The translations under genes and the position numbers were made by a program. DNA of 64,000 nt, from positions 151,770 through 215,769 of the forward strand of contig JAYSTI010000001.1 of NCBI GenBank assembly GCA_043719805.1, written 5' to 3'. The stretch's first letter is position 1, and each line of letters begins with the position of its first letter. Origin of the DNA: Candidatus Lloydbacteria bacterium (GTDB lineage: Bacteria; Patescibacteriota; Minisyncoccia; Phycocordibacterales; UBA6899). The notes beneath the pieces are model-generated. The model was not told the origin of the DNA. It saw only the letters and a program-made list of their open reading frames with translations, and did not search any database. Shown here piece after piece: positions 2,058 through 58,027 of this stretch.

Positions 2058-3107
2058 TTACACGAATTTCGCCACCTCCAACACATGAAGCATGAGTGTG
2101 TTCGTATACCCCATCTCATTGTCGTACCAACTCATCACCTTCACCAAGTTTCCATCAACAACGCGCGTGAGCTCAAGGTCGGCAATTGCACCGTGCAAAT
2201 TGCCGATGATATCAGACGACACCAGTGGCTCCTCGGTCACGGTGAATATACCCGCCCATCGTGGATCCTTCGCAGCGTCACGGAGAATTTGGTTTACTTC
2301 TTCCGTCGTCGTATTGCGCTTCGATATAAACGTGATATCGGCGATAGAACCGGCGATAACGGGGACGCGCATTGAGATTCCGTCGAACTTACCCTTGATA
2401 TCGCAGATAACTTCACCGACGGCAACTGCGGCTCCTGTTGAAGCAGGAATCATGTTCTGTGATGCGGCGCGACCACCACGCTGGTCTTTTCCTCCGGGAC
2501 TGTCGACGACGCGCTGTGTGCCAGTCATGGCATGAGTGGTATTCAAAAGCGCCTTCTCGATGCCTATCGCTTCATTTAATATTTGAATAATCGGACCTGA
2601 CGCATTCGTCGTGCACGATGCATTCGAAGATATCTGGCAGGTTGCAAGCTTTTCATGATTGATGCCCATAAGTACCATTGCGCACTCAACCCCGTCTGTC
2701 GTCGTCCCTTTTGCGGGACCGGTGATGACCACGCGCTTTGCACCAGAAGTGAGATGCACCTGTGCCTTTCCGTAATCAGTAAAGAAACCAGTCGATTCAA
2801 TGACGATATCAATATCATATTTCCCCCATGGAAGCTTGGTCGCATCTTTCTCTTGAACCAACACGACCTTGTGTCCACCGTCGGTAAATCCCGCTGGAGA
2901 TTCTCCCGATGCAGCCGAAACGGATACAGCAAAATCTGCCACCCCGTAAGCAGTGTCATACTTTAGTAAGTAGGCCATGTTCTCAGGATCACCAAGGTCA
3001 TTCACGGCAACAATCTCGAATTCCGGCCTCGAGCGCGCAAGCTTATAAAATGCGCGACCGATGCGTCCAAAACCATTGATTGCTATCCGTACTTTTTTGT
3101 CTGACAT
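2058..3107 (-). CDS. gap: glyceraldehyde-3-phosphate dehydrogenase
   Basis: MSDKKVRIAINGFGRIGR (NAD-binding) and SNASCTTN (catalytic Cys) motifs. 349 aa. Confidence 0.95.
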   Translation of the reverse strand: MSDKKVRIAINGFGRIGRAFYKLARSRPEFEIVAVNDLGDPENMAYLLKYDTAYGVADFAVSVSAASGESPAGFTDGGHKVVLVQEKDATKLPWGKYDIDIVIESTGFFTDYGKAQVHLTSGAKRVVITGPAKGTTTDGVECAMVLMGINHEKLATCQISSNASCTTNASGPIIQILNEAIGIEKALLNTTHAMTGTQRVVDSPGGKDQRGGRAASQNMIPASTGAAVAVGEVICDIKGKFDGISMRVPVIAGSIADITFISKRNTTTEEVNQILRDAAKDPRWAGIFTVTEEPLVSSDIIGNLHGAIADLELTRVVDGNLVKVMSWYDNEMGYTNTLMLHVLEVAKFV

Positions 3108-3169: not shown

Positions 3170-3428
3170 TTGTCGCGGGGTCGCTCGCTATAGGCCATAA
3201 GTAACTGTTACCACACTCTCCCTGGATGGGCAGAGTCGTCACAGTGAAAGTGGATGGTGGAGCGAAATTCCTCGGAATTGACCCCGCTTCGGTGTCGCTG
3301 GTGTCAGGAGACTGGTACTTCCCGCTCCGTCCGGCCGCGAACAGTGACCACTTTCACGCACCACATCCTCCGCTCGCCAGTGCGTAGTGCAGAAAGCGCC
3401 CGACTCAGTCGGGCGCGCTTTTTTTATT
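3170..3428 (+). ncRNA. putative structured ncRNA of unknown class (~250 nt, ~58% GC in an AT-rich intergenic region), ending in a strong intrinsic terminator
   Basis: No ORF on the plus strand. Nested complementary segments: GCGGGGTC/GACCCCGC, GTGAAAGTGG/CCACTTTCAC, GTAACtGTTAC and AATTCcucgGAATT hairpins. Terminal GCGCCCGAC-tca-GTCGGGCGC + TTTTTTT. Checked by eye against RNase P, tmRNA and SRP consensus motifs and none is present. Confidence 0.3.
3394..3426 (+). terminator. rho-independent terminator (9-bp GC stem + U7)
   Basis: AGCGCCCGACTCAGTCGGGCGCGCTTTTTTT. Plus-strand oriented; the minus-strand version has only UUUC, so it is a weak terminator for the surface-protein gene. Confidence 0.6.
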
Positions 3429-3436
3429 TGTGAACA

Positions 3437-6400
3437 CTAAATCAGGAAGTCCTCTGACACGACACCCTTCGTGAGCGCAAGATCCTTCGTACGCAACACT
3501 TCGTGATAGGTGCCATCGGGAAGTTTTTCTTCAATGGTGATGAAGTAGGTGCCGGGTGGAATCAAGAAGTAAAATTTTCCTGTTTCGTCGGTGACGGTTT
3601 TCTTTACCACTGTGTTTAATCCCGGCAACCATACTTTAATGAGCGCGAACGGAATTGGTTTCTTTGTGATTCTATTTAAAACGCGCGTAACTTTGTGTGT
3701 CGCTCTCCAGAATATTTGGAAGCCGATGATGCCGACATAGACAACCACAACAAACACATTCAACGCCGATGGCGACAGGAAGAGTGTCAACGATGAAAAT
3801 ACGAAACCAATATAGAAAATGATGTTGAATATCCACATGCGAATATTCGCACGCTTCGAATAGACTTGGAATACTTGGTCTTGGTTTTTCGCAAATTCAT
3901 TCCAGTCAAACTCGACGGGGTCCAGGGGAATATTGTAGGTAACAGCACCACCCTCCCGCACTTGGAACGGATCACCGAAATACAGATTCTCGTAGAATTC
4001 GTCTCGTGCACGACCCTTCAGTTTGTCCGACGGGAATTTGTAATGCGTTTTATTGGCAACAATGACGTATTCTCCGGGATTCAAAAGAAATCCGTAGCGG
4101 CCGTCGAGATCTGTGATTGCCTCGCCTTTGGATTTCTGCGTATCGCGTACTTGCGCAATTACATATGCCGGGTCGAGCGGGCGCTTCGTCACCGAGTCGT
4201 AGACCACACCCCACGGCTCGTGTCGTTTGCGACGGAATATTCCCGTGATGAGTCCAATTAACTTAAGTATCAATAGATAGATGTCATAGACAGACCCCAC
4301 ATTCGTTGCAAGCAAGACTGCCTGCCCGGCACCGATGGCAACTCCGATGGGGGCGGCGATGGGGGCGATATTTTGCACCGGTACCTGAATGTCTTCAATC
4401 GCCTGATTTACCGCTTGCGCGATTGCGGGAGGAATAATCGAGGGTAATTTTATAGGAAGATACACATCGAAAATTCCGAGAAGCCGCGCAATGCCCTTAT
4501 TCTCGTGATCAACAATGCTGATTGTGAACGGATACCTACCGTCCTCTGTGAATATTGGAATGACACCTTCGTAAACAGTTTTTGACTTGTTTACGTTGAG
4601 GAGGTACGAGAGTTCCTTGTTGCGCTGATTTGGGTCAGTAATGGTGATTGCAATCGTTTTTAGTACATCAGGAAGTTTATTGTAGTTGATAGAAACACGA
4701 ACATTTTTTTCCCCGTTTGTCCGCACTATGCCGTTGCGCTGCGGAAGCACTACTTCAGTTGCACCTACCTGTGTAAAAATAAAATCGTTGAGTGTAATGG
4801 CTAAAATCGCCGCACTCGGCGTCCCGGTTGCGGGGAAATTAATGAATGGCCCGCTTGTCGTGCTCGTGATTGGCGGGAAGATAGGTGTCGGCGGAGTCGT
4901 CGAACCGGTGCCGCCCGGTGGTGGTGGGGGCGTGGTGCACACTCCCCCCGTGTCTATTCCCGTCTCATCTTGATTCATTATGCCGTCATAACACGTCGCG
5001 GAAGGCGGAGGGGGTGGAGCGGCACACACTCCTCCGGTGTCTATGCCTGTCTCGTTTTGATTCATGATGCCGTCAAAACAGGTCTCCGGAGGGGGCGGTG
5101 GAATAATGCCTGTATCCGTCGTCGCCGAAACGATTGAGCCGGATGAATAATTAAGTGCAGCATCGCGCGCAAATGCAGTGTAATAATAGAGCGTTCCAGT
5201 TGCACGACCAGTATCAATGACCGACTGCGCACTTCCTTCATAGACCAACACGCCATCAGTAGGATTTGCCGGGTATCCGGTCACGCGGCGCAAAATGCGC
5301 ACCGCCTGAAAGTCCACGTCCGGAGGATTGACCCACGAAAGCGAAATGGTAGTAAGAGACGGCGTCGCGGAAAATGCGCTCGGATTTGCGGGCGGGGTCG
5401 TATCAGGAGGTGGTGGCGGATTTTGTGTCGTGAATGAACCGGTATACGCAATGCTTATATTGTTTGAAATGTCTTTAGCGGTGATACGAAAATAATACAA
5501 CGTATTTGTGGCGAGACTACCGACGCCGATGGAATGCGCGAGGCCATACACAATCTCACTTGCAGACCCGCCGGCGTACGCCGTCGTTGTTCCCCACTCC
5601 ATGGTACCGATTGCACTTTTATTCGTCGTGAAAACAACTGTTCCTGTGGTGTATGTCGAAGTGGCGGACACTGCCGATATGACTGGCGGAGTATTGTCGA
5701 ATATCGTAAACGACCATGTCCCCGATCCGGAAATTCCCGCAAACAGATTACCCGCAATATCGGCAATTGCCGTCGCGGTAATCTCCACATAATATTGTGT
5801 CGCAGATAAAAGTGGCGCGGAAAGCGTGATCGTGGCCAACGAACCGGAAACAACTACTTGCCCGCTATTCGAGGGGATGGTCTCCACGATGCTCGCATCA
5901 CTCTGCTTTTTTACATAGATGGTCCCCGCCATCGCAGCGACATTTTCGGAAAATGTTATCCGTAGCGTCGTGGTCGCCGCAACTCCGGACGCACCGTTCA
6001 AGGGATTGAGGCTGCCTATGGTCGGTGGTGTCGTATCAGGTGGAGGGGGTGGAGGGCCACCGCCGTTGGTTGTCGCACTCGCCGGTCCCGATTGTCCGGA
6101 ATAATTATTTGACGCATCAAATGCCTCCACGGTGTAGCTGTAGAGTGTCGACGCAGTGAGTCCGGTATCCGAATATGTAACGAGCGTGGTCGTCGCAATG
6201 GCAACTCCACCGCGACGCACCACATATCCGGCAACAGCGACATTGTCGGTCGACGCTGTCCATGCGAGATTAATCTGCGAACTAGAAATAGGCGTCGCAC
6301 CAAGTCCGGCCGGAATACTTGGCGGAGTCGCATCGGAAGTCACGACAACCCCGATAGTAAATTGATTTCCCGCAGCTAGCGCAACGGGTAACAACTGCCC

Positions 6401-6472
6401 AGCAAAGAAAGACAATATCAAAAAGAAACTCATCACCGAAAATATTTTTTTGTTATTCTTTTCTGCGGACAT
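3437..6472 (-). CDS. large cell-surface protein (1011 aa): signal peptide, several FN3/Ig-like modules joined by poly-Pro linkers, two Cys-rich repeats, C-terminal TM segments and prealbumin-like beta domains
   Basis: N-terminal MSFFLILSFFAGQLLPVALAAG signal. Repeated PPPPPDTTPP linkers and 'LAWTASTDN' / 'SLSWVNPPD' FN3-like cores. Hydrophobic helices in the C-terminal third. Confidence 0.8.
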   Translation of the reverse strand: MSAEKNNKKIFSVMSFFLILSFFAGQLLPVALAAGNQFTIGVVVTSDATPPSIPAGLGATPISSSQINLAWTASTDNVAVAGYVVRRGGVAIATTTLVTYSDTGLTASTLYSYTVEAFDASNNYSGQSGPASATTNGGGPPPPPPDTTPPTIGSLNPLNGASGVAATTTLRITFSENVAAMAGTIYVKKQSDASIVETIPSNSGQVVVSGSLATITLSAPLLSATQYYVEITATAIADIAGNLFAGISGSGTWSFTIFDNTPPVISAVSATSTYTTGTVVFTTNKSAIGTMEWGTTTAYAGGSASEIVYGLAHSIGVGSLATNTLYYFRITAKDISNNISIAYTGSFTTQNPPPPPDTTPPANPSAFSATPSLTTISLSWVNPPDVDFQAVRILRRVTGYPANPTDGVLVYEGSAQSVIDTGRATGTLYYYTAFARDAALNYSSGSIVSATTDTGIIPPPPPETCFDGIMNQNETGIDTGGVCAAPPPPPSATCYDGIMNQDETGIDTGGVCTTPPPPPGGTGSTTPPTPIFPPITSTTSGPFINFPATGTPSAAILAITLNDFIFTQVGATEVVLPQRNGIVRTNGEKNVRVSINYNKLPDVLKTIAITITDPNQRNKELSYLLNVNKSKTVYEGVIPIFTEDGRYPFTISIVDHENKGIARLLGIFDVYLPIKLPSIIPPAIAQAVNQAIEDIQVPVQNIAPIAAPIGVAIGAGQAVLLATNVGSVYDIYLLILKLIGLITGIFRRKRHEPWGVVYDSVTKRPLDPAYVIAQVRDTQKSKGEAITDLDGRYGFLLNPGEYVIVANKTHYKFPSDKLKGRARDEFYENLYFGDPFQVREGGAVTYNIPLDPVEFDWNEFAKNQDQVFQVYSKRANIRMWIFNIIFYIGFVFSSLTLFLSPSALNVFVVVVYVGIIGFQIFWRATHKVTRVLNRITKKPIPFALIKVWLPGLNTVVKKTVTDETGKFYFLIPPGTYFITIEEKLPDGTYHEVLRTKDLALTKGVVSEDFLI
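4930..5100 (-). repeat. in-frame tandem duplication (~84-nt unit, 2 copies) inside the surface-protein gene, encoding PPPPP..TC[FY]DGIMNQ[ND]ETGIDTGGVC
   Basis: Near-identical nucleotide units. The Cys-x-DG..N..E.G.D.GG.C pattern resembles Cys-rich calcium-binding-type repeats. Confidence 0.6.
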
Positions 6473-6503
6473 TGTTGAAAAACTAGCAAGAACGCACGAC
6501 GAA

Positions 6504-7274
6504 CTAATTAGGAAGCACGGTCAGTGTCGCAGTAGCGGTATAGCTCCCCGCCACCTGTACATTTAAGGCGCCGGACCCCGCACGAAAGCGAATTGTTATT
6601 GCGGTACCACTCGGACTATTCGGTGTGGTGCGCGACACAATAGTTTCGACGGACGCAAGCAATGGACCCCAACACGCACTCGCCGTATTACTACTGCCGA
6701 CATTACACAATGCCACACCATTGTCATTGTATTTTTGCACAATATCAGTCCCCTCCGGCGAAAAACCAAAACGGCTCGCTGCGGCGGGCGTTGTGAAGGT
6801 GAAATCGGGGTCTGCTCCGGCGGGTACATAGTTGGCAAAATTGTTTGCACCCGAAGCAAGTGCCGGGGTTCCTGATGCGCGAATATTCATGCTGTATCCC
6901 GCTGCATTATCGGTCGTCACTGTCCACACTGAAAATCCATTCGCGATTCCTCCACCCGTCGCCGGAACATTAGGTGCAAGCGTGATATTTCCCGGTGCAG
7001 TGATGGCCAGATAGACCTGCTGCATCTGCTGATATCCCGCTTTGATGTTGAAGCTTGCGGATGATGAAGTGCCAACCCCTTCTTCGCCAACTGTGTCCTC
7101 GGCGCGGTATGAAGTCGACGTAGAGAGCACGCCGCCCACGTTCACGCTGTCCGTCTGAATGCGATAGCTCGTACTTGAAGAAATATATGCGTAGGCCGCC
7201 GGTGCAAAAACTATCATCACGGCAAGCGCAAGAAATGAGAACGAACATGTGCGGGAAAAAGTGTTCATGGTCAT
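6504..7274 (-). CDS. secreted protein, possible WxL-domain (csc-like) surface protein
   Basis: Signal peptide MTMNTFSRTCSFSFLALAVMIVFAPAAYA. Ser/Thr/Gly-rich beta-type composition. C-terminus GSYTATATLTVLPN resembles the WxL C-terminal motif (tYtatLTWtL.daP). Start overlaps the upstream stop as ATGA. Confidence 0.55.
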   Translation of the reverse strand: MTMNTFSRTCSFSFLALAVMIVFAPAAYAYISSSTSYRIQTDSVNVGGVLSTSTSYRAEDTVGEEGVGTSSSASFNIKAGYQQMQQVYLAITAPGNITLAPNVPATGGGIANGFSVWTVTTDNAAGYSMNIRASGTPALASGANNFANYVPAGADPDFTFTTPAAASRFGFSPEGTDIVQKYNDNGVALCNVGSSNTASACWGPLLASVETIVSRTTPNSPSGTAITIRFRAGSGALNVQVAGSYTATATLTVLPN

Positions 7275-8293
7275 GAAACTCGATGCTTAGACAACTGAAG
7301 TGAGCGACGAACGAGCCACACCAAGCCGACAAATACAATTGCAATCAATATCATTCCCTCAGTTCCCGGAACAATCCAAAATCCCACTTGATTTTCATCA
7401 ACGATGTCCTGATAACCACGATTGAGCTCGAGATGTGCGGTGTAATAACCGATAGAAAGTGACTCGCGTACATCGACCTCGCTCATGAGCGTCGCACCCG
7501 GAAGTACTGCGTAGGGTGGGATGATGATGACTTTTGATTTACCGATGAGCGGAGAGAGCGTCATGCGTCCGTACGGATTCACGTGAACAGCGCCGGTGTT
7601 TTCATATGCAACCTGAAATCGCAGTGGGGCATCTGCCGATGGTGCGCCTGACGTTTTTACATTATTGAAAAGTCCGAATGCGACAAGATGCCCCTCTTCT
7701 TTTGCGCTCCCAAGTATGCGCACGTAAAAAAGCGTCGCGAGCCTGCTCTCTATTGCGACGTTCGCATTTTGCTCCTTGCCCTCCGTCAATATCGGCTTGA
7801 AAGTAAGGACAACAGAGCCGAACCTCCCCCCGGCTTCCGCGTCCTGTGGGATTCGCACCGTAATCGGAATCTGTGCTTCTTGCCCGGAGAGAATATCAAC
7901 GGACTTCTTGCTTGTATGAAAAAGATCCTTAATTGGATACGCTCCGCCATTCGTGCCGAGTAGTGTGACGGGCTGGTCATTGGGAGAGGTCTGCACACTC
8001 GGTGCGACGTCTTCATAAGACACAGTCACCGAAAGCGGGAGCGCTGTCCCATTGGAAAGCGTAAGCATCGTCGTCTGTTCCGCCCCGGGTAAAATTGAAA
8101 GCTCAATCTTAGCCGGACGAACAACAAAAGCACCGGTCGGTAGTTGTGTCTCCGCTGACGAGATGACGGGCAAGGAGAGGAGTGCAAAAAAAAGCACAAC
8201 CATAGCCAACAATCGCCCCACAAGAGTGGTGTGTTTCTTCATTGCTCTATTATATGAATAAATGGGGCGACTTGCTATCCCCATCTCATTCAT
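7271..8293 (-). CDS. cell-surface protein, DUF916/DUF3324-like (signal peptide, Ig-like beta domain, C-terminal TM anchor + basic tail)
   Basis: MKKHTTLVGRLLAMVVLFFALLSLPVISSA signal. 'AFVVRPAKIELSILPGAEQTTMLTLSNGTALPLSV' Ig-like strand pattern. C-terminal MILIAIVFVGLVWLVRRS anchor. 340 aa matches CscA-like proteins. TAATG overlap with the upstream gene. Confidence 0.6.
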   Translation of the reverse strand: MNEMGIASRPIYSYNRAMKKHTTLVGRLLAMVVLFFALLSLPVISSAETQLPTGAFVVRPAKIELSILPGAEQTTMLTLSNGTALPLSVTVSYEDVAPSVQTSPNDQPVTLLGTNGGAYPIKDLFHTSKKSVDILSGQEAQIPITVRIPQDAEAGGRFGSVVLTFKPILTEGKEQNANVAIESRLATLFYVRILGSAKEEGHLVAFGLFNNVKTSGAPSADAPLRFQVAYENTGAVHVNPYGRMTLSPLIGKSKVIIIPPYAVLPGATLMSEVDVRESLSIGYYTAHLELNRGYQDIVDENQVGFWIVPGTEGMILIAIVFVGLVWLVRRSLQLSKHRVS

Positions 8294-10008
8294 TATTGAC
8301 CGTTGTCTGGAATCGTATACTCATGCGCACTTCCCGCAGAATCACGAAAGACGGGTTGAACGAGGAGAGAATGAGCAACGGTTCCCGTCGCTACGATTAT
8401 CTCGTCTGAGAAAGGGAGCACGGTGTTTTGGTCGTTGGTCACCGAGACGGCAGCCTCGTGCGACGCGGAAGTGAGATTCGGGGTGAGTGCAGCACCGACG
8501 CCAGCGATGTAGGATACGGAATTTGTGACAAAAGAGGTGTTTCCAAGTGAACCAACGACGGCGAGCGCTCCGGTGCCGGCAAAAACAAGTGCAAAGGCGA
8601 GATTGAAGCCGACACTCTTTGCAAGCGGATACTTTTCGCGAAGTACAAGCTGATGTTCTTCGATTGTTATCGGCAACAACGAAGAAGCTTGTACCATGTC
8701 CTGCTGCATTACTCTCATCGACGGAACACTTCGCGTATCAGGCACGAGGGCCTCCGGTGCCACCACGGGCAACGCACCGATAGAAGCCACCGATACTCGT
8801 GGCGCATGCGGCACGACGAGAAACGGACGCTTAGGAAAAATAGTCGTCGAATGAGTTTCCGCATCTTCTGGTGCAACTTTTCCGGCAAATTTTTCCGGCA
8901 AAAAAACAACGACACGCCTATCTTCACCAAGCTCAGGAATGCCGGGGTGATGAATAGCGCTCGCCACGTCCGAAGAGGAGATGCCTGCGGTGGTATTCAC
9001 TACTCCACCCAAAACGGGAAAAAGTGGGAGATCCTCGTGGTGCGCACTTACATCGACGGATGTTTTAATCGGGTGGTAAGGCGACGCAAATGGTGTCGCA
9101 ACGACCAAGGGCTGCTCCTCACTTTTTACAGTAGAGACAGGTGCAGCGGGAAGCGTGTGACCGTCAAGAAGCATCGCGTCCCACTCATCATTTTTTGCTT
9201 CAACATGCACGGTCGTCACGTGTGGACGCGTAACACCAAGATGCACTACCGGGGAATGTAAATCGATTCCCACTTTGTCCGCCCCCGCCTTTAGCGACGA
9301 CATATGCACGGGTACGTCTGCACTACTTTTTTCTCTCTGCTCCGAAAAATTATCGGATGTACCCATAATGGGGACATGAGAAGAGGAATGCGGCGGTGCA
9401 GGTGGGGTCACTGCATTTGCCCACATTTTGGCCGCTCGCGCGGAGCTCAATTCGGCTTTTTTTTCTTGGTCCACTTGTGCTGCGGGGGCCGGTGCTACAT
9501 CAGTCGTCTTCTCTGAAACCGATGTCGGATTTGAGACTACGGCATGCCCGACTAAAGAAAATGGCGAGGTCCTCCCTCCTTGTGACACGGACTGATTCAC
9601 ACCCATAAAACTCGGGACAGGCTGAGTGATTCCTTCGGCTACTTTTTCTGAAAGAAGCATCTCCGCCTCGGCTGCGGCCGTTTCCTTTGTGCTTCGTTCG
9701 TTCTTCCTTTGCAGCAAAGACTCTGTGGGCACAGTGGGCTCTGATTGTGGTTCTAAAAGATTTTTTTCAACAAAATTGATATCCTCATAGGAAAGAAGAA
9801 TTGCATGAGTCTCAGCCAAAAGGGACGAAAGCTCGACGACAAATTCCCCGTGGTTCCAAAGTCGGTATTCCAACTTATTGAGACGACAAAGCCTCTCCAA
9901 ATATTCCTTGGTGTAGCCGGATATTTTTGCCCCAGTCTCAAGCGCGACGTATCGCTTCTCCTTCGCTTCATCAGAAAGCTGGGACAGAGTTTTGTTGCCG
10001 ACATCCAT
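8293..10008 (-). CDS. membrane-anchored protein: N-terminal HTH-like domain, long disordered S/P/A/V-rich linker, single C-proximal TM, short extracytoplasmic tail
   Basis: LSQLSDEAKEKRYVALETGAKISGYTKEYLERLCRLNKLEY (HTH-like) and TM LAFALVFAGTGALAVVGSLG. 57 bp downstream of gatB on the same strand. Confidence 0.6.
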   Translation of the reverse strand: MDVGNKTLSQLSDEAKEKRYVALETGAKISGYTKEYLERLCRLNKLEYRLWNHGEFVVELSSLLAETHAILLSYEDINFVEKNLLEPQSEPTVPTESLLQRKNERSTKETAAAEAEMLLSEKVAEGITQPVPSFMGVNQSVSQGGRTSPFSLVGHAVVSNPTSVSEKTTDVAPAPAAQVDQEKKAELSSARAAKMWANAVTPPAPPHSSSHVPIMGTSDNFSEQREKSSADVPVHMSSLKAGADKVGIDLHSPVVHLGVTRPHVTTVHVEAKNDEWDAMLLDGHTLPAAPVSTVKSEEQPLVVATPFASPYHPIKTSVDVSAHHEDLPLFPVLGGVVNTTAGISSSDVASAIHHPGIPELGEDRRVVVFLPEKFAGKVAPEDAETHSTTIFPKRPFLVVPHAPRVSVASIGALPVVAPEALVPDTRSVPSMRVMQQDMVQASSLLPITIEEHQLVLREKYPLAKSVGFNLAFALVFAGTGALAVVGSLGNTSFVTNSVSYIAGVGAALTPNLTSASHEAAVSVTNDQNTVLPFSDEIIVATGTVAHSLLVQPVFRDSAGSAHEYTIPDNGQ

Positions 10009-10064
10009 GCGAATTAATATAACATAAATTTAATAAATTGCAAATATGCACACCGATCCAGCCA

Positions 10065-11471
10065 TCATCCGATTAATTTCTGAAAAAGTTCTCCCAGCAC
10101 TTTCGGATTTGCAGAGCCCTTTGACGCTTTCATTCCTTGCCCAACGAGATACTGAAGTGAGGCGGTCTTCCCCCCTTTAAATTCCGCGACCACCGCTTCG
10201 TTTGCAAGAATGACGTCTTTCACGATGACTTCGAGCGCTCCCATGTCGCTTTTTTGAATAAGTCCGTGCTTTTCCGCAATGTCACGAGGCAACCCGCCTT
10301 CTTTGTGCATTATGGCGAGCGTATCTTTTGCGCCACGCGAGGACACATCCCCGACATGAACCATGCGCATAAGTATCACGAATGTTTCGGGAGTTATTTT
10401 TCCAAGACCCACATCGCCGGCCTTCATCATCGACGCAAGATCGGAAGTGATGTAATTTGACGCGAGCTTGACGTGCTCCTTATCACCGGAGAGTTTTGTC
10501 GCGACATCCGCAAAGAACGTACCAATGACCGCATCAGTAACAAACATCTCTATTATAGAATCCTGAAAACCAAATTCTTTGGAGAGTCTTTCTCTGCGCT
10601 CCCACGGGAGTTCGGGCATTGTCACTTTCAAATTCTGAAATTCGAGAACTTCGGAAATATTCATTTTCGGAAGGTCAGGCTCTGGAAAATACCGATAATC
10701 ATTGGCACTCTCTTTCTTGCGCTGACTGAACGTTTTCCCCGCATTTTCATCCCATCCCCGCGTTTCTTGTACTATCTTTTCACCGCGACCAAGCACTTCT
10801 GCGTGTCGCTTAATCTCATACGCAATCGCATCGCCAACCGCCTTAAAAGAATTGATATTCTTCACCTCAACTTTTGTGCCAAATGTTTCTGTTTCAGAGA
10901 TGGAGATGTTCGCCTCAACGCGCATCTCCCCTTTTTCCATATTTGCGTCAGATGCACCGAGATAACGCAGAAGGAGTTGCAACTCTTTTGCAAAACGCAT
11001 CGCCGTCTCCGCATCATGAATGACGGGCTCGGTCACCAGCTCCATCAAGGGCACCCCCGCACGATTATAGTCGATGAGTGAGTAGTCGCCCTTGTCGTGG
11101 CGCGAGCTTCCTGTGTCCTCCTCCAGATGCACGCGGGTAATATCGACCCCGGCGAGTTTCCCTCCCAAAATAAGCGGGTAAAGATATTGACTGATCTGAT
11201 ACCCCTTAGGAATATCCGGATAAAAATAATTCTTGCGGTCCCATTCGGTAAAATCGGCGAGCTTTGAGCCCACTGCAGTGCCGACGCGAAGAACCTGAAG
11301 TACGGCCTTTTTGTTGATGACAGGAAGTGAGCCCGGCTGTGCGGTGCACACGGGACAAATGTTCCAGTTCGGTCGCTCCTCATCGGGGTCGTTTTTGCAG
11401 CGACAAAACATCTTGGTGTTCGTCTTTAGCTCCGCATGTATCTCAAGCCCAATTGTTGTTTTATATGCCAT
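10065..11471 (-). CDS. gatB: Asp-tRNA(Asn)/Glu-tRNA(Gln) amidotransferase subunit B
   Basis: MAYKTTIGLEIHAELKTNTKMFC..CPVCTAQPGSLPV is the canonical GatB N-terminus. The ORF-track start was trimmed to the MAYKTT methionine. Confidence 0.95.
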   Translation of the reverse strand: MAYKTTIGLEIHAELKTNTKMFCRCKNDPDEERPNWNICPVCTAQPGSLPVINKKAVLQVLRVGTAVGSKLADFTEWDRKNYFYPDIPKGYQISQYLYPLILGGKLAGVDITRVHLEEDTGSSRHDKGDYSLIDYNRAGVPLMELVTEPVIHDAETAMRFAKELQLLLRYLGASDANMEKGEMRVEANISISETETFGTKVEVKNINSFKAVGDAIAYEIKRHAEVLGRGEKIVQETRGWDENAGKTFSQRKKESANDYRYFPEPDLPKMNISEVLEFQNLKVTMPELPWERRERLSKEFGFQDSIIEMFVTDAVIGTFFADVATKLSGDKEHVKLASNYITSDLASMMKAGDVGLGKITPETFVILMRMVHVGDVSSRGAKDTLAIMHKEGGLPRDIAEKHGLIQKSDMGALEVIVKDVILANEAVVAEFKGGKTASLQYLVGQGMKASKGSANPKVLGELFQKLIG

Positions 11472-11485
11472 AGATTGTATAACTT

Positions 11486-11618
11486 TCACAAACGGCGAAC
11501 TTCTTTGTTGTGGAGCCTCTCTCACTCAATCAACATATAGGAATATGTCCTCTTCGTTCGCTTCTCCACGCCGCGAATTTCATCTGTTTCTGAACATTCT
11601 GCCGTGGCTAGCATTTTA
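11486..11618 (-). repeat. Family-2 structured leader element, copy A (~135 nt), immediately 5' of the gatB start codon
   Basis: ~70-75% identical to 16145-16285. Ends 12-18 nt before the ATG. Conserved hairpins carry compensatory changes (see findings). The spurious ORF 11522..11944 translates it (..ETDEIRGVEK..KRTYSY..). Confidence 0.65.
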
Positions 11619-24236: not shown

Positions 24237-25589
24237 CTATTGATGCGGCTTTGCAAGTTTAAGCTTTTTCAGGTAGGCAACAAGGAGAAAACTCACCAAC
24301 GCAACGAGGAGCACCAGTGCCCCATTCAATACATTCTTGTTTCGCTCGGTAAACGGGACAACGGGTGGGGCGGGTGGCACATATGCCGCATTCAATTGTT
24401 GCGTCCCGAGGGTAAACTCGGTTAGCGAAACGCCCTCAAAGTAATGAAAGAAGCGGGCGATGTCGTAGAGCGGTTCACTAGCCCTCGCGTTTCCATAGTA
24501 GAGCACCTCCTCTGTACCAAATTTCGAAGCGAACACAATTGAACGAGCAACGCCCTCAAGTGTCAAAATGCTCTTCCAATTTATCGGCTTATCGTCCTGA
24601 TCAAACACGATGACGCGAATATGGCGCATTTCAGTTTCAGGATATGAAACAGACAGATCACTCCCCGAAAAGAGCGGGGTCTTGAGAGAAAATACATAAC
24701 CTTGCCCAAGGATTTTCCACGTTGCCGCATCATTGCTCCCCTGTATGACGACGCGTCTGTTGAAATTATGCGTGTCGTCTGTTGCGAGAATCACCTTTCG
24801 CGTAGCAATACCTGCACCCCCGAGATCAACAGCTACTTCAGTTGATTTTTCTTTTGCGTTCTGTGCAACTGCCGCACGCTCCACCATCTGATTTTTTCGT
24901 GCGTCACGCTGCAGTATTCGAAGTACTCGTGCTCCCGCAACGGCAACGTCACTGCCTTCACCTCTCCCGATGACTACGCGCAAGTAACGCGAGGTGCTCT
25001 CGGGATAATAGACATCCTTGCTTCCCGCATCAAAGCCAAGCGACTGGTCGTAATAATTGTAGACAAAGCTGGTGTTGCTGAGAAGCGCCCACTCCGCAAT
25101 ACTCTTATCGGTATTTGCCCTCGTGTCCGCGTTGCCGTATGGATCATTCGCGGTGTTGGATGCATATACGGATACCGGGCGCTTAAAGTTTTTAGACCCC
25201 GTTTCGATGACAAGATGGTCGTGAATCGTCCCGCTTTTGCCCAAGTCGAGGATGAACATTGTCTCACCATCCTTAACGGCGAGATCGCGCAGTGAACTTT
25301 GCACGTACTCACGGCGTACGGCCTCATTTTCAATCACAAGTTGATATGGAACCTCTTCCCCGCCACTTGTCACGACGCGCAGGTCTGCAAGGTCGGTTCG
25401 CGCGCCGAAACTCACCTCTCTGTCGAGGCTCACCCTGACGTATTTTGATGAGCCGACAGTAGGCACAGCAATGACCGGTTTCTTGTACTGCCATTCACTC
25501 GGGGAGAAATCTGCGTATGCTGTACCCGCAACAGCGAGAGCGAGAGCGAGAAATGAGAGCAGGAGATATTTTTTCATATTGTTAGCCAT
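24237..25589 (-). CDS. secreted, C-terminally TM-anchored protein, DUF3999-like
   Basis: Signal peptide MKKYLLLSFLALALAVAGTAYA, C-terminal LVLLVALVSFLLVAYLKKLK anchor. 8-nt overlap with the upstream polytopic gene. AAGGAAG SD 6 nt before the ATG. Confidence 0.5.
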   Translation of the reverse strand: MANNMKKYLLLSFLALALAVAGTAYADFSPSEWQYKKPVIAVPTVGSSKYVRVSLDREVSFGARTDLADLRVVTSGGEEVPYQLVIENEAVRREYVQSSLRDLAVKDGETMFILDLGKSGTIHDHLVIETGSKNFKRPVSVYASNTANDPYGNADTRANTDKSIAEWALLSNTSFVYNYYDQSLGFDAGSKDVYYPESTSRYLRVVIGRGEGSDVAVAGARVLRILQRDARKNQMVERAAVAQNAKEKSTEVAVDLGGAGIATRKVILATDDTHNFNRRVVIQGSNDAATWKILGQGYVFSLKTPLFSGSDLSVSYPETEMRHIRVIVFDQDDKPINWKSILTLEGVARSIVFASKFGTEEVLYYGNARASEPLYDIARFFHYFEGVSLTEFTLGTQQLNAAYVPPAPPVVPFTERNKNVLNGALVLLVALVSFLLVAYLKKLKLAKPHQ

Positions 25590-27561
25590 AGATTACTTCC
25601 TTAAGACGATGCTTATATTTCGCGTAAAGAAACGCCGCACCAAGTGCAATCACGCCGAAGATGATTGTGGAGAATATGCGCGCAAGGTCTCCAAGTTCCC
25701 ACACATAGATAAATACCCTGATTGCCGTGATAAAGAAGAAAATGAGACCAAATAGCCGCAACACGCGTAATCGCCGTACAAAGCCGATGATAATCAAAAG
25801 TGTCGAATAGAGCGCCCATACTATCGTCGTGACGGCACTACTTTTACTTCGGAGATCGTTTGTTTGGTTAGTGTCGAACTGACCGTAGTTGTAGTAATCC
25901 GGATATTCCGACCTAACTTGTCCTTGGTATTGCGCAGTCTTTGTGGCTTCAACTCGAGACTCCTGCTGTATGCGCGCAATATCTTGCGAATATTTATGTG
26001 AAATCTCGGTCGTTAATGCATATATCGTCAGCAAATTCGCAAGCACAACAAAGACGGAAACGATCTTTTTCCATTCAACGCCAGAGTCGTCATTTTTTGC
26101 GTACAACCACGCAAGCACATAGAACACCACGACCCCAAGAAGGATGAGGAAGAATCCCATGTTCATAATCGGAGTCAATTCGCCCGATGATGCAGCTCGG
26201 GAAATTGCGCTCATTGCGATATTTCTTATTTTTTCGACTTCACCAATCATCGACACCATTCCAAGCAAGAGAACAACCCAGCCGAATACTTGGATAATCT
26301 TTTCTTTGATCATGAGCCCGACATACACGAGCACGAGTGATTCGACGAGCCATGCAATCGAAATCCAATACCCCGTGAGCTGTAGAGGGATAGCAATAGA
26401 GAGGAACACAACGGCTATTCCCGGAAACGTGAGATTGAGCGTGCGGTCATGCTCTTCTCTTGCGTAAGCCAAATAGGAAAAGACGAGATAAAGCACTGCG
26501 AGAACAAGCGCGAAGAACCCGAGCACGTCGTGGTGCTTCGGTTCAAGGATGCCGTAGCATGCACTGAAGTATCCCATTGCGTTTAAGGCAAGAAGGATAA
26601 GGTCGCCCGATGTAGACGCCTCCTTTCGTACGAAATGGTGCATGATTGAATTCACCAAAAACACGAGGAAGAAGAGCGTGAGGAAAAAGAACGTCATCGC
26701 AAGCTGGCCGTCCGGATCTCGCCAGTAGAAAGACTCCATCCACCCGCCAAAAAGTATGATCGTTCCGAAAAATGTCAGATAATTCAGCTTTGTCCATTTT
26801 GTGAACCACGACACACCAAGGACGCCGATATTGAGTACGAGCATGTAGAGCGAAAGTGTCACCAGATGATTCTCTCCCGTTGAAATCAGCATTGGTGTCA
26901 TAAAACCGCCGATGACACCAATGACTGCGAGGCCCATCGTGTTGCCCGATACCGCAATGACCATCGCAAGCGTCGTGACGAGTATCATGAGCGCAAATGC
27001 GATTGGCTGAGAGATGACGGCAGGTGAGTAGAATGCGAAGCCTGCATAGATAGAGAAATAGAGAATGCCGATGCCTGCGCCGAGCAAGAGATCGCTATAA
27101 TTCAGGTATTTCTCACGGAGCTTCTGCCCGACGACGATACAGGCAATGCCGGCGATGATGCCCATCGCAACCTGGCCGGTCGGCCCAATGAGCTCATTAT
27201 CAAACGCATATTTCAAAAAGAAGGAAACACCAAGGAGGAGCATGATGGCGCCAACCCATCCGAGCCACCTTGCACTGACTTCTTCTTGCGTCTCAACGAC
27301 GACCGGAACATACATTGGGGCGGGTGCCGGGGCGGCCGCGAGAGAGGACGCTGTGCCAACGTCAACGTTGGCGACATACGCACTCATGCGTGCCGCAAGC
27401 ACTGCATCGTTCGATGGTGCACCCATGGCGCCTCCACGAGAAAGTGATTCGAGTGTATCAACGCGAGCAACCAATCGTGATACTCTTACCCACAAATAAA
27501 CAAATGCCGCGATAATAATAAAAAGCAAGATTCCCCCGAAATCATCAAATAGATAATACAT
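25582..27561 (-). CDS. large polytopic membrane protein (>=14 TM), DUF2339-like
   Basis: Continuous hydrophobic helices. The frequent DUF2339/DUF3999 gene pairing is recalled from memory, not searched. Start trimmed to MYYLFDDF to remove overlap with the MFS gene. Confidence 0.5.
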   Translation of the reverse strand: MYYLFDDFGGILLFIIIAAFVYLWVRVSRLVARVDTLESLSRGGAMGAPSNDAVLAARMSAYVANVDVGTASSLAAAPAPAPMYVPVVVETQEEVSARWLGWVGAIMLLLGVSFFLKYAFDNELIGPTGQVAMGIIAGIACIVVGQKLREKYLNYSDLLLGAGIGILYFSIYAGFAFYSPAVISQPIAFALMILVTTLAMVIAVSGNTMGLAVIGVIGGFMTPMLISTGENHLVTLSLYMLVLNIGVLGVSWFTKWTKLNYLTFFGTIILFGGWMESFYWRDPDGQLAMTFFFLTLFFLVFLVNSIMHHFVRKEASTSGDLILLALNAMGYFSACYGILEPKHHDVLGFFALVLAVLYLVFSYLAYAREEHDRTLNLTFPGIAVVFLSIAIPLQLTGYWISIAWLVESLVLVYVGLMIKEKIIQVFGWVVLLLGMVSMIGEVEKIRNIAMSAISRAASSGELTPIMNMGFFLILLGVVVFYVLAWLYAKNDDSGVEWKKIVSVFVVLANLLTIYALTTEISHKYSQDIARIQQESRVEATKTAQYQGQVRSEYPDYYNYGQFDTNQTNDLRSKSSAVTTIVWALYSTLLIIIGFVRRLRVLRLFGLIFFFITAIRVFIYVWELGDLARIFSTIIFGVIALGAAFLYAKYKHRLKEVIYG

Positions 27562-27613
27562 ATAGACTCTATTGTACCAAATCCCCGAAGAACGGGTAGC
27601 CCCGTTCTCGCAA

Positions 27614-28873
27614 TTAAGTGGAAAGTCGATTCTTCCCGCGTTGAATATGGTTAATAAAATAGAGACCACTTCCGATGACAATCATCGCGGCAACGAGAAG
27701 CGGTGTTGACGGTTCAAATTTTGCCGCAATGGTTCCTGCTATCAAGGGTGGGATGGTCATCGCGAGTGCCAAGACACTCCCATTGATTCCGAGCACCTCC
27801 CCCTGCATGGTCGGCCCTGCGGAACGCGAAAGCAGGCCGGTGAGATTCGCCTGAGAAAGCCCTGTCGCTATTGCAAAAAACGGAACAATGAAATAGAGCC
27901 ACGATACTTGGGGGGAAAGAAATATCGCGAGGATTGTCAGGCCAACCACAATGAGCGTGTTCTGAATAATTTGCGTCTCTCTAAATCTCCTTCCCATCTG
28001 TCGCGTCACAACCGCCTGCGCAAAAACAATCCACAACCCCACGTAAGCAAAATAGTTGCCTATTGATGACTCCGTAAAACCAAAACGATAGAAGAGGAAG
28101 ACGCTCGCGAATGTCACATAGAATGAAAATCCCATTTGGAACAGAAAACTCGTAAGATAGATTGGTCGCAGGTGCTCGGCATTGAAGGCGTGCACGACGT
28201 TGGTCACCGCCCTACTCAAATGCAGGCGCTCGCCGCGCTTCAGAAAATGATTCGTTTCCGCAAACATGGTGTAAACAAAAACAAAATTTAGCAGAGAAAG
28301 TATCGATGCAAACCAAAATGGTGTTGACGCGGTGAACCACGAAACGAGGTGTGGGTCGGACAGTTTGCCGCCGAGAAATGGTCCGACGATAAATCCGAGC
28401 CCGAATGCAGCGCCAATCAGTCCGAAATTTTTTGCGCGATTCTCGGGTGTGGTCACATCGGCGATGGCTGCCTGCGAGACGACAATATTCCCCGAGCACA
28501 CACCCGTGAGAAACCTCACGACAAAGAGGAGTGCAACGGACTTGATGAGGATTCCCACACCGAACAACATTTGCCCGACGGCGGTTCCGATGATGGATAC
28601 AAGGAGGAGCTTCTTGCGACCGAACTTGTCCGACAATTGCCCGATAATGGGTGCGGCAAAAAACTGACCAAGCGAATAGAGCGCGAGCATCACTCCGAGT
28701 AAAACGTATCCCGTCTCCTTGTGGGTTCCCATCGGAAGCAAATAGTGTTCGGAAAGCGGATTCGCAAAAAGGACGGGAATGACCGGGATGAGAATACCCA
28801 CTCCGACCATATCGAGGAATATCGTAAAAAAGAGTGTCACGAGCGCACGATTTTGCATCGCGTCATTATACAT
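27614..28873 (-). CDS. MFS transporter (drug:H+ antiporter/TetA-like)
   Basis: 12 TM. MFS motif A region GQLSDKFGRKKLLL after TM2. Confidence 0.85.
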   Translation of the reverse strand: MYNDAMQNRALVTLFFTIFLDMVGVGILIPVIPVLFANPLSEHYLLPMGTHKETGYVLLGVMLALYSLGQFFAAPIIGQLSDKFGRKKLLLVSIIGTAVGQMLFGVGILIKSVALLFVVRFLTGVCSGNIVVSQAAIADVTTPENRAKNFGLIGAAFGLGFIVGPFLGGKLSDPHLVSWFTASTPFWFASILSLLNFVFVYTMFAETNHFLKRGERLHLSRAVTNVVHAFNAEHLRPIYLTSFLFQMGFSFYVTFASVFLFYRFGFTESSIGNYFAYVGLWIVFAQAVVTRQMGRRFRETQIIQNTLIVVGLTILAIFLSPQVSWLYFIVPFFAIATGLSQANLTGLLSRSAGPTMQGEVLGINGSVLALAMTIPPLIAGTIAAKFEPSTPLLVAAMIVIGSGLYFINHIQRGKNRLST

Positions 28874-54590: not shown

Positions 54591-54661
54591 ACACGTAAGA
54601 TTATGAATATGTAACCAATGATACGCCTTTATAAAATATAATCCTTGTAACATCCTACGAA

Positions 54662-55438
54662 ATGTGGGGAGAATGGGGGGACAACGAGGTGGTGGGCCGG
54701 ATGTGCTCGCCCAATGTGGATTGCACCCATATAATGAAATACATGCCCCCAAGCGACGAAAATCAAAACTCACCCTCTGTGGTACCCCAAGAGCCCGAAA
54801 CACCCCAAGGGAATGCCCCTGCTCTTCAGGCAATGTCTGATACGACCTCGAATGACGAGATGACCCCTTCGGTGGACACAACACAGGCCTCTGTGGTGAG
54901 CGAGATACCTGACAGCTCAGTAGTGACAGAGGCTGAACAAGTAACCGTACCTGTGCCAGACTCCGTGGAAACGACACAAACTGAGCCATCTTCTGACGCT
55001 GCAATTCCTGAGGTGGTGACGATCCCAATTGTGGAAACACCATCGCCCAACTCAGGCGACGTTATGGAAAGTGAGCATCTACCAGAGACCGTAAACGGCT
55101 CAAATGGTGTATCTGAGCCAATACCCTCTCCATCGGCTTCGGGAGCAGTGGAAAGCGAGATTACCCAGTCGGCAGTTGCAACGACGGTGGCGAGCACAAG
55201 CATCGTTCTGCTACTACTCCAGAAAGGACGTGCAATCATTCAGCTGCGGAAGTACAAGAAACTCGAGCGAATCATGGGGCTCTTTGCGAAGAAGCCCCAC
55301 ATCAGAAATGACGACGTCGAGAAGCTGCTGCGCGTCTCAGATGCTACCGCGACGCGCTATCTCTCACTACTTGAGCGATCGGGAAAAATCACTCAGTCGG
55401 GCAAAGCGGGGCGGGGTGTGGTGTATGTGAAAACCTAA
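54662..55438 (+). CDS. winged-helix DNA-binding protein with ~170-aa acidic Ser/Thr/Pro/Val-rich N-terminal region, divergent from the Rhs gene
   Basis: C-terminal HIRNDDVEKLLRVSDATATRYLSLLERSGKITQSGKAGRGVVYVK is a wHTH fold pattern. Alternative start at 54734 (MKYMPP). Overlaps only the rejected Rhs N-terminal extension. Confidence 0.5.
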   Translation: MWGEWGDNEVVGRMCSPNVDCTHIMKYMPPSDENQNSPSVVPQEPETPQGNAPALQAMSDTTSNDEMTPSVDTTQASVVSEIPDSSVVTEAEQVTVPVPDSVETTQTEPSSDAAIPEVVTIPIVETPSPNSGDVMESEHLPETVNGSNGVSEPIPSPSASGAVESEITQSAVATTVASTSIVLLLLQKGRAIIQLRKYKKLERIMGLFAKKPHIRNDDVEKLLRVSDATATRYLSLLERSGKITQSGKAGRGVVYVKT

Positions 55439-57896: not shown

Positions 57897-58027
57897 GCCA
57901 TCAACTATATAGGGAATGCCCACTACTGGCAATCAGCATCGACTTGTACCGCCCTTTGCTTTTATGGCCTAATAATTGTTACTATTTGAGCTTCTCTGGG
58001 GTTTTCTTAGGCATAACGAACACATTT

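Follow-up and report, generated by a model that had tools for sequence, protein, structure and literature searches.

A conserved gene cluster downstream of gatB in Candidatus Lloydbacteria and other Paceibacteria as a candidate Pam-like, usher-less surface fibre system

The closest described system to the gene cluster reported here is the Pam pilus, found in a bacterium of the candidate phyla radiation (CPR). In Candidatus Mycosynbacter amalyticus (M. amalyticus, Saccharimonadia), the pilins PamA and PamB are joined by donor-strand exchange, as seen by cryo-electron microscopy (Troman et al., 10.64898/2026.03.03.709456). In the same preprint, PamC and PamD were assigned from structure prediction as FimC/PapD-like chaperones with C-terminal transmembrane (TM) helices, and PamT was proposed as a single-domain, non-polymerising tip. 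PamR, with a predicted RbmA-like FnIII fold, an N-terminal strand and a TM helix, was likewise proposed as the terminator and anchor. That preprint calls Pam CPR-exclusive and makes no mention of WxL, DUF916 or Paceibacteria/Parcubacteria. A second relevant system is the WxL/Csc clusters of Lactobacillales and Listeria (Siezen et al. 2006, PMC1534035; Hassan et al. 2023, PMC10599100; PDB 9i1y and 9i25). We analysed a 64,000-nucleotide (nt) stretch of DNA from Candidatus Lloydbacteria (contig JAYSTI010000001.1, positions 151,770 to 215,769; hereafter the window, in which all positions are numbered), where four genes downstream of gatB had been predicted from the sequence to form a Csc-like cell-surface cluster. 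We consider the cluster most likely to be a new Paceibacteria variant of the Pam kind, conserved across the whole class, and give a rough probability of 0.6 that it encodes a Pam-like, usher-less, chaperone-assisted donor-strand surface fibre of a monoderm CPR bacterium.

The open reading frames (ORFs) of the cluster and its flanking genes occupy the following positions:

10065-11525, minus strand: gatB, flanking housekeeping gene; the ORF as listed opens at GTG
8293-10008, minus strand: 571-aa ORF
7271-8293, minus strand: 340-aa ORF; likely coding part 7271-8242, 323 aa
6504-7274, minus strand: 256-aa ORF
3437-6472, minus strand: 1011-aa ORF
2058-3107: GAPDH gene, after the 1011-aa gene

All five ORFs from gatB to the 1011-aa gene are co-oriented on the minus strand (window 3437-11525), the four cluster ORFs being as originally described, and an identical set of proteins is present on public metagenome contigs. 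The identity of gatB was confirmed by Pfam (GatB_N 3.6e-105, GatB_Yqey 3e-31) and NCBIfam (GatB 5e-159).

The 340-aa protein is the component through which the cluster can be compared with both described systems. Its parts are located as follows:

N-terminal part of 7271-8242, minus strand: signal peptide
about 7715-8137, minus strand: DUF916-like beta-sandwich, including a long hairpin
7715-7765, minus strand: conserved hairpin strand ANVAIESRLATLFYVRI
about 7370-7693, minus strand: second beta-sandwich
about 7280-7363, minus strand: C-terminal TM helix (AlphaFold2 helix, residues 294-321), followed by the basic tail RRSLQLSKHR

The AlphaFold2 (AF2) model of this protein (predicted local distance difference test, pLDDT, 91.4) begins with a signal helix and ends with a TM helix; between them lie two beta-sandwiches and a long hairpin whose tip is disordered. 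This is the architecture expected of the DUF916/WxLIP family, with a signal peptide, two immunoglobulin (Ig)-like domains and a C-terminal TM helix, and it confirms the predicted membrane anchor. The DUF916 part of the original prediction also held. The Pfam model PF06030 (DUF916, WxLIP_PGBD) matched the protein itself at E 0.0023 and 18 bits, under the gathering score of 27.3, and 32 of the 69 members of its family, with a best E of 2.4e-7. Searched against the PDB, the family profile found EfmWxLIP1 of E. faecium (9i25_C, 9i1y_A) at 1.7e-6, and hhalign of the family against eight Firmicute WxLIPs gave a probability of 96.7% and an E value of 3.6e-10 over 141 columns, covering the first domain only. 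The WxL and WxLIP genes for these comparisons were taken from Enterococcus, Lactococcus, Vagococcus and Lactiplantibacillus plasmids. Foldseek ranked the WxLIP structures 9i1y/9i25 best (3e-11), followed by the chaperone-usher chaperones CfaA, CsuC, Caf1M, FimC and PapD (about 2.5e-10 to 7e-7) and then by RbmA. Both the WxLIP and the chaperone-usher matches have a Foldseek probability of 1.0, and the alignment to the WxLIP structures extends over ~280 columns of the model, with the second beta-sandwich in the same position. The DUF3324 part of the prediction found no hidden Markov model support, PF11797 matching 0 of the 69 family members. At the level of the superfamily, sequence comparison places the 340-aa protein in a diverged branch of the DUF916/WxLIP family.

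With the same family profile, ~335-aa, PF06030-bearing proteins of Saccharimonadales were also matched over the full length at ~1e-52. One of these (P0230, 'DUF916 domain-containing protein [Candidatus Saccharimonadales]', 1.4e-52) lies on a contig that encodes PamR, at 369 bits against the NCBIfam cutoff of 300, together with a weak Pam_pilin_C protein. Two chaperone homologues (2.4e-61 and 4.3e-28) flank PamR on this contig, a layout that agrees with PamC...PamR...PamD; the comparison with the Pam chaperones was made via these Saccharimonadales proteins adjoining PamR and not with PamC and PamD of M. amalyticus themselves. The matches of one profile to the PamR-flanking proteins and to WxLIP therefore place the window chaperone, the Pam chaperones and the Firmicute WxLIPs in one family. 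Judged by these profiles, a shared DUF916/WxLIP chaperone connects Pam pili to WxL clusters, a link that we did not find in the literature searched. The Saccharimonadales Pam locus also has a sortase gene (L003:6201-6794), which follows its second chaperone gene at a distance of ~1.6 kb on the downstream side; the window cluster is without a sortase.

The 256-aa protein is encoded immediately downstream of the chaperone gene, with the following parts:

7188-7274, minus strand: Sec signal peptide ending AYA
7020-7187, minus strand: residues 30-85, three Ser-rich repeats bearing [NS][YF]x[ILA] motifs
6507-7019, minus strand: Ig-like C-terminal domain
6669-6707, minus strand: invariant Cys190/Cys201-Trp202

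The three Ser-rich repeats read SSTSYRIQTDSVNVGG, STSTSYRAEDTVGEEGVG and SSSASFNIKAGYQQMQ. In the AF2 model, the Ig-like C-terminal domain (residues ~85-256) has a pLDDT above 90 and residues 28-82 have one below 50. Residues 30-85 are the best-conserved stretch of the family, though the AF2 monomer does not place them, as would be expected of a strand that folds only inside a partner. The NCBIfam model PamT (NF058579) matched the protein over residues 14-134 with an E value of 9.6e-13 and 48.1 bits. It also matched 128 of the 148 family representatives at E<=0.01, none of them near the cutoff, and Pam_pilin_C (NF058581) matched three of the 148 at the same threshold. These results point to distant homology with PamT and not to equivalog membership. 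The Foldseek matches of the pilin-like protein were nearly all donor-strand subunits, namely FimA, PapE (probability 0.96-0.97), FimG/F, the PapG pilin domain, CfaB, TasA, CanA and TLP.

The original prediction had taken the 256-aa protein for a WxL-like secreted protein, which these analyses did not bear out. PF13731 (WxL) matched neither the protein nor any of the 148 representatives, no Pfam model matched the protein, and the family profile had no match in the PDB, not even the 9i25 WxL chain. With hhalign, the pilin gave a probability of 0.4% against nine real WxL domains and of 2.4% in a wider alignment of the C-terminal domain. The Trp residues that define WxL are not conserved in the pilin family, in which only W202, within the C-W motif, is conserved, and the WxL chain of 9i25 falls outside the top 50 Foldseek matches. 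Of the two proteins, the 256-aa one matches a different family, PamT, and the 340-aa one has DUF916 support. A WxL consensus compared with PDB sequences produced chance matches only.

The pilin family is large, with 437 close matches and 1763 representatives at E<=1e-3. In longer relatives (450-670 aa, up to 2187 aa), the repeat and the pilin domain sit at the C-terminus, and the N-terminal domains include Laminin_G_3 in 15 proteins and DUF2341 in seven, as well as Gly_rich_2, Toxin_R_bind_N, CBM_4_9 and H_lectin. By analogy, these long relatives resemble two-domain tip adhesins. The module is present in ~40 representatives of 450-670 aa and in the still larger P0307 (2187 aa) and P0375 (1205 aa). 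TafC matched eight of the 148 relatives, which might suggest a link to archaeal pili; the simplest cause is the laminin-G-like N-terminal domains of these relatives, a domain type that TafC has too, and we do not take the matches as homology of the pilin domain.

The arrangement of the cluster was followed in a species-level scan (one genome per species), which found ~200 relatives and from which synteny was counted in the best 80 loci. The closest named relatives are Candidatus Lloydbacteria and metagenome-assembled genomes of the 'Parcubacteria group', and essentially all of the best 80 loci are labelled Patescibacteria, mostly of Paceibacteria-type orders. The order chaperone, pilin, FN3 protein on one strand is kept in about 77 of the 80 loci; about 47 have gatB upstream in the same orientation, and about 25 have GAPDH downstream. 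Across these loci, pilin identity ranges from 43 to 81% and chaperone identity falls to about 25%. Conservation of this extent goes far beyond what chance would produce. The FN3 protein encoded downstream has ~450-540 aa in most lineages, where it carries a signal peptide and one TM helix at the C-terminus. In the Lloydbacteria-like lineage it is longer, at ~1000 aa, through additional hydrophobic hairpins and CarboxypepD_reg-like domains. In 36 of the 80 loci, a short pilin paralog is encoded upstream of the chaperone. This paralog is homologous to the C-terminal domain of the 256-aa protein (E as low as 8e-30), is without the triple repeat and has the mature N-terminus 'xDQFT(I/V)TQS(V/I)T(S/A)EISF'. 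The PamR, PamT and Pam_pilin_C models found no match in the FN3 anchors and short pilins of the related loci.

Further features were observed in these loci. The signal peptides of the short pilins carry a conserved '(V/L/A)EP(A/T/S)(L/I/V)(G/S)xA' just before the mature DQFT strand (for example L026:8267-8956, L046:8276-8968 and L081:3889-4557); plain Sec signals do not usually have such a motif, which may point to processing by a dedicated step. In many related loci, giant signal-peptide proteins of 1300-2700 aa lie directly beside the cluster, downstream of the FN3 anchor (L025, L042, L044, L046, L054, L057, L062, L072, L073 and L078) or upstream of the cluster (L059, L061 and L072). No pilin domain was found in them, and they could be cargo or adhesins of the system. 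Some short contigs bearing the cluster are oddly labelled, as 'uncultured Gammaproteobacteria' (L047, CAZXEV010000107.1) or 'Nanoarchaeia archaeon' (L081, DATGWK010000115.1), and many are labelled 'uncultured Candidatus Saccharibacteria' though their genes are of the Paceibacteria type; these labels are probably generic or due to mis-binning.

The 1011-aa protein, encoded downstream of the pilin, consists of the following parts:

6374-6472, minus strand: signal peptide
6332-6373, minus strand: mature N-terminal strand AGNQFTIGVVVTSD ('NQFTI'), candidate donor strand
about 5102-6331, minus strand: four FN3/Big_5-type domains parted by PPPPP linkers
4937-5086, minus strand: two Cys-pair repeats
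4235-4369 and 3707-3838, minus strand: two hydrophobic hairpins, with a CarboxypepD_reg-like domain after each

Pfam found Big_5 (3e-18), a weak fn3 (4e-5) and CarbopepD_reg_2 (1.9e-7), and the protein has four hydrophobic segments; the description of an FN3/Cys-repeat surface protein given in the original prediction agrees with these domains and the two Cys-pair repeats, which PPPPP linkers separate. The N-terminal strand stands directly after the AxA cleavage site and directly before the first FN3 domain. A strict QF.[IV] motif at this N-terminus was found in 23 of 64 positional homologues, compared with 0-4 of 64 in control windows. The 'NQFTI' strand is common to the FN3 protein and the short pilin paralog and is therefore a candidate donor strand, and two proteins exposing the same N-terminal strand would be expected if both competed for one acceptor groove. 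With an N-terminal strand, FN3 domains and a TM anchor, the architecture of the FN3 protein is analogous in kind to that of PamR, which found no match in five ~520-aa positional homologues of the FN3 protein.

From the homologies, folds, synteny and motif enrichment described above, we infer strand insertion, polymerisation, a polarity of the fibre and a function in adhesion. The three structural proteins would be exported by Sec, and the 323/340-aa chaperone would be held by its C-terminal helix on the outer face of the cytoplasmic membrane, where its hairpin strand would cap the incomplete Ig-like domain of the 256-aa pilin. Donor-strand exchange would then join the subunits, the N-terminal extension of each pilin filling the groove of the previous one. 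The 1011-aa protein would give its 'NQFTI' strand to the last pilin groove and end growth, and its FN3/proline-linker stalk would tie the structure to the membrane. The 571-aa helix-turn-helix (HTH)-TM protein would be a conserved accessory, possibly coupling the envelope to gene expression or acting as a scaffold. CPR bacteria are monoderm, and the monoderm envelope that had been suggested for this organism fits because it belongs to the CPR. The product may, instead of a fibre, be a short stalk-and-cap structure. Its function is likely to be attachment to a host cell or surface, and pilin relatives carry lectin-like N-terminal domains.

Several results weigh against a Pam-like fibre. The PamT score of the 256-aa protein (48.1 bits) compares with an equivalog cutoff of 240 and covers only the N-terminal half, and Pam_pilin_C had no match in this protein at E<=10. 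The pilin-family profiles did not match the pilins of the Saccharimonadales Pam locus, and the Foldseek matches of the pilin are weak, with a best E of 7.8e-3. PamR (NF058578) found no match in the 1011-aa protein, whose polytopic C-terminal half has no assigned role in the model, nor does the HTH-TM protein have one. The window lineage has a single pilin-domain gene within the 64 kb, a search of the window for further pilin or chaperone paralogs having returned none. Donor-strand exchange and polymerisation are steps that we infer, and with one pilin gene and PamT as a proposed non-polymerising tip, the cluster could make a capped stalk and no long filament.

An alternative that we regard as unlikely is a WxL/Csc-type non-covalent complex, in which the DUF916 protein would bind and stabilise a secreted WxL-like protein 1:1 on the cell wall, unpolymerised, and the FN3 protein would be a separate adhesin expressed along with them. 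The 340-aa protein is indeed a true DUF916/WxLIP relative with the WxLIP structures as its top fold matches, and the pilin family occurs in small and large forms with a common C-terminal domain, as do small and large WxL proteins. A permissive hhalign run of the pilin's C-terminal domain against real WxL domains aligned 'TDN.aGY.L.I' with 'D.RG..GW.L.V' and then 'G.Y.AT.T.T' with 'Y.T.L.W.L', which is suggestive only. However, the PF13731 count (0/148), the hhalign probabilities (0.4-2.4%) and the lack of any PDB sequence match all speak against a WxL partner, as does the conservation of W202 only instead of the two defining Trp residues. The cluster has a single partner gene, and no LPXTG CscD-type protein was found among the four cluster proteins nor any such small ORF in the cluster, whereas the Firmicute comparison loci do contain a small LPXTG protein. 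Moreover, the nearest experimentally characterised CPR relatives of the chaperone belong to a filament system, and a 1:1 complex would not account for the N-terminal strand motif that the FN3 protein has in common with the short pilins. With no WxL match, no DUF3324 support from hidden Markov models, no LPXTG CscD and one partner gene, the proposed membership in the Csc clusters is not supported; in place of the non-covalent WxL-type surface complex suggested earlier, the closest described system, the Pam pilus, points to a donor-strand fibre.

Somewhat less likely still is a single capped stalk, in which the 1011-aa FN3 protein would be the functional surface spike, bearing on its N-terminal strand one copy of the 256-aa protein, delivered by the chaperone, as a PamT-like tip. 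Such a structure would account for PamT, the proposed tip, being the sole Pam model matched and for the single pilin-domain gene in the window, and the FN3 protein is long, proline-linked, itself membrane-anchored and conserved in its N-terminal strand motif. On the other hand, the most conserved part of the pilin is its own N-terminal extension with three donor-like motifs, for which a cap would have no need, and many relatives add a second pilin with an N-terminal extension of its own. That these are unrelated envelope genes merely lying beside gatB, with a fold likeness due to generic Ig-like beta-sandwiches, is highly improbable: Ig-like folds are common, Foldseek matches are promiscuous and most cluster proteins have no family assignment above a curated cutoff, but about 77 of 80 species retain the order despite deep divergence, a 4-nt overlap links the 340-aa gene to the 256-aa gene, and homology to the Pam and WxL chaperones is significant at the level of sequence profiles, beyond fold.

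The first gene of the cluster encodes the 571-aa protein, a bitopic membrane protein with two recognisable parts and a long linker between them:

9808-9954, minus strand: HTH_17-like domain, residues ~19-67
8542-8607, minus strand: TM segment, residues 468-489, followed by an outside tail of ~80 aa

A membrane-anchored HTH protein had been predicted here, and both features were recovered, the HTH through positional homologues. In the 571-aa protein itself, neither Pfam nor NCBIfam found a match, HTH included; positional homologues matched HTH_17 (PF12728) with a best E of 1.1e-9, and most related loci hold an HTH-plus-TM protein in this position. By these matches, the HTH is of the excisionase/HTH_17 type. 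Among 14 close homologues, the N-terminal 80 aa are conserved at 70-81% and the linker at 15-40%. The suggestion of a RodZ-like scaffold was not supported, since no RodZ or XRE family matched in Pfam or NCBIfam and the HTH is of the HTH_17 type. Enterococcal HTH neighbours of ~500 aa were considered as equivalents of the 571-aa protein and rejected, being without a TM segment and of another architecture. In the Enterococcus/Vagococcus plasmids, WxL loci are flanked by HTH proteins of 281-506 aa without TM segments (L087:8871-10391, L088:3754-5229 and L089:5037-5882), which parallel the HTH gene of the window cluster only loosely.

The gene junctions had been predicted to be translationally coupled through two stop/start overlaps, and one of them stands. 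The 340-aa gene overlaps the 256-aa gene by 4 nt (ATGA). At the junction with the 571-aa gene, the TAATG overlap can likewise be read in the sequence and requires the first ATG of the 340-aa ORF. However, nearly all of the 81 homologues in the 340-aa family have ~323 aa and align from Met18 (MKKHTT), which opens a classic signal peptide; public gene calls begin at Met4. Because of the length and alignment of these homologues, the gene probably starts at window 8242, 51 nt past the stop codon of the 571-aa gene, and the TAATG overlap is therefore probably not a functional coupling site. The gap between the 256-aa and 1011-aa genes is 31 nt. The real start of gatB is probably at ~11471, the listed GTG lying 18 codons upstream of the public 468-aa call, and the N-terminal extension (window 11472-11525, minus strand) is probably untranslated.

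Two candidate transcription signals border the cluster:

10016-10044, minus strand: promoter-like site in the gatB/571-aa gap, from a consensus scan; TTGCAA and a TG-extended TATATT, 16 nt apart
3396-3416, strand not assigned: GC-rich hairpin of 9 bp with 8 GC pairs, 20 nt downstream of the 1011-aa stop

The gap between gatB and the 571-aa gene is 56 nt long and AT-rich, and no terminator-like hairpin was found within it. Because promoter-like sites across the region are as numerous as expected from shuffled sequence, the site at 10016-10044 is a candidate only. With a gap that lacks a terminator and has a promoter-like site no commoner than in shuffles, a read-through operon from gatB is possible. 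The hairpin at 3396-3416 is possibly the end of the transcription unit; its function as a terminator on the minus strand is uncertain because the T-run lies on the plus strand and the minus side has only TTTCT.

Much of the CPR consists of Paceibacteria (Parcubacteria), which have almost no cultured members, and to our knowledge the mode of their host contact has not been described. A syntenic surface-fibre locus would be a concrete candidate for their attachment. It would take the Pam system past the two classes stressed by the preprint, in a form reduced to a single chaperone, pilin and anchor, which may lend itself more readily to reconstitution. Csc/WxL clusters are linked to adhesion and virulence, and the placement of the Pam chaperones in the DUF916/WxLIP family would tie this 20-year-old, unexplained cluster to donor-strand pilus assembly and suggests a testable mechanism for both systems. 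We put forward only tentatively, as a doubtful extension, that WxL/Csc clusters, Pam pili and the Paceibacteria cluster are branches of one ancient monoderm donor-strand system, in which a membrane-tethered DUF916/WxLIP chaperone would pass incomplete Ig-like subunits into surface fibres with no usher. If so, the WxL domain itself would be a diverged pilin-type acceptor domain, Pam would not be CPR-exclusive as claimed, and the class would have in the Paceibacteria form a core organelle that is inherited vertically and has its own minimal triple-repeat pilin and polytopic FN3 anchor.

Elsewhere in the window, we observed a 3224-aa ORF (45369-55043, minus strand) with SpvB (1.3e-17), RHS-repeat, FG-GAP and Ig-like domains, which by its domains resembles a giant, toxin-like surface protein of the Tc/Rhs type, here encoded in a small CPR genome. 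An adjacent pair of membrane proteins, DUF3999 (450 aa) and DUF2339 (699 aa), is encoded at 24237-27681 (minus strand). The ORF at 55695-57932 (minus strand, 745 aa) encodes a fusion of TPR repeats with a Wzy_C O-antigen-ligase-like protein.

Compared with the Pam pilus, the cluster shares a CPR host, Sec-exported components and the absence of an usher or sortase; a two-domain, PapD-like chaperone with a C-terminal TM helix (E ~1e-52 to 1e-61 to the PamR-flanking DUF916 proteins); a pilin distantly homologous to PamT, with a paired-Cys, Ig-like C-terminal domain; and a membrane-anchored FN3 protein with an extra N-terminal strand, as in PamR. Unlike Pam, it belongs to Paceibacteria/Parcubacteria and has one chaperone instead of two. 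It is without the two-domain pilins of the PamA/PamB/PamE type, in which a linker strand connects the N-terminal to the C-terminal domain; the 256-aa protein has no N-terminal domain, whereas its longer relatives have one, followed by the repeat and the C-terminal domain. The window pilin is extended at its N-terminus by the Ser-rich triple repeat, and its anchor, polytopic and 1011 aa long, is not matched by PamR. The cluster also includes an HTH-TM gene, and its neighbours are gatB and GAPDH in place of the ATP synthase, CorB and MFS genes of Pam.

With the WxL/Csc clusters it shares a WxLIP (CscA) component, in which an Ig-like DUF916 domain bearing a long hairpin is followed by another Ig-like domain and then by the TM helix at the C-terminus, and the mechanism proposed for WxLIP, in which a hairpin strand completes the incomplete beta-sandwich of the partner, follows the same principle. 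It differs in that its partner protein has no detectable WxL domain or dual Trp-x-Leu motif, in having one partner gene as opposed to at least two WxL genes near WxLIP, and in that DUF3324 is undetectable by sequence in its chaperone family. The HTH proteins that neighbour the enterococcal loci are cytoplasmic and without TM segments, in contrast to the 571-aa TM protein.

With the chaperone-usher pili (Pap, Fim, CFA/I, Csu, Caf1), the cluster shares the chaperone fold and the principle of pairing an N-terminal extension with an acceptor domain, and the C-terminal domain of its pilin weakly resembles FimA, PapE and FimG. Unlike these pili, the proposed system has no outer membrane, and its chaperone is tethered to the membrane and not soluble; no sequence-level similarity was detected, and no usher-like ORF was found in or near the cluster. 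The haloarchaeal Tat-fimbriae (tafi; PMC11821415) use Tat in place of Sec, and the window cluster differs from them further in having no dedicated signal peptidase and in having a PapD/WxLIP-type chaperone. Nevertheless, Tat-fimbriae, TasA and the archaeal bundling pili resemble the proposed system as donor-strand fibres at a single cytoplasmic membrane, and the laminin-G tip subunit and membrane-anchored terminator of the Tat-fimbriae (PMC11821415) are alike in concept to what we propose here.

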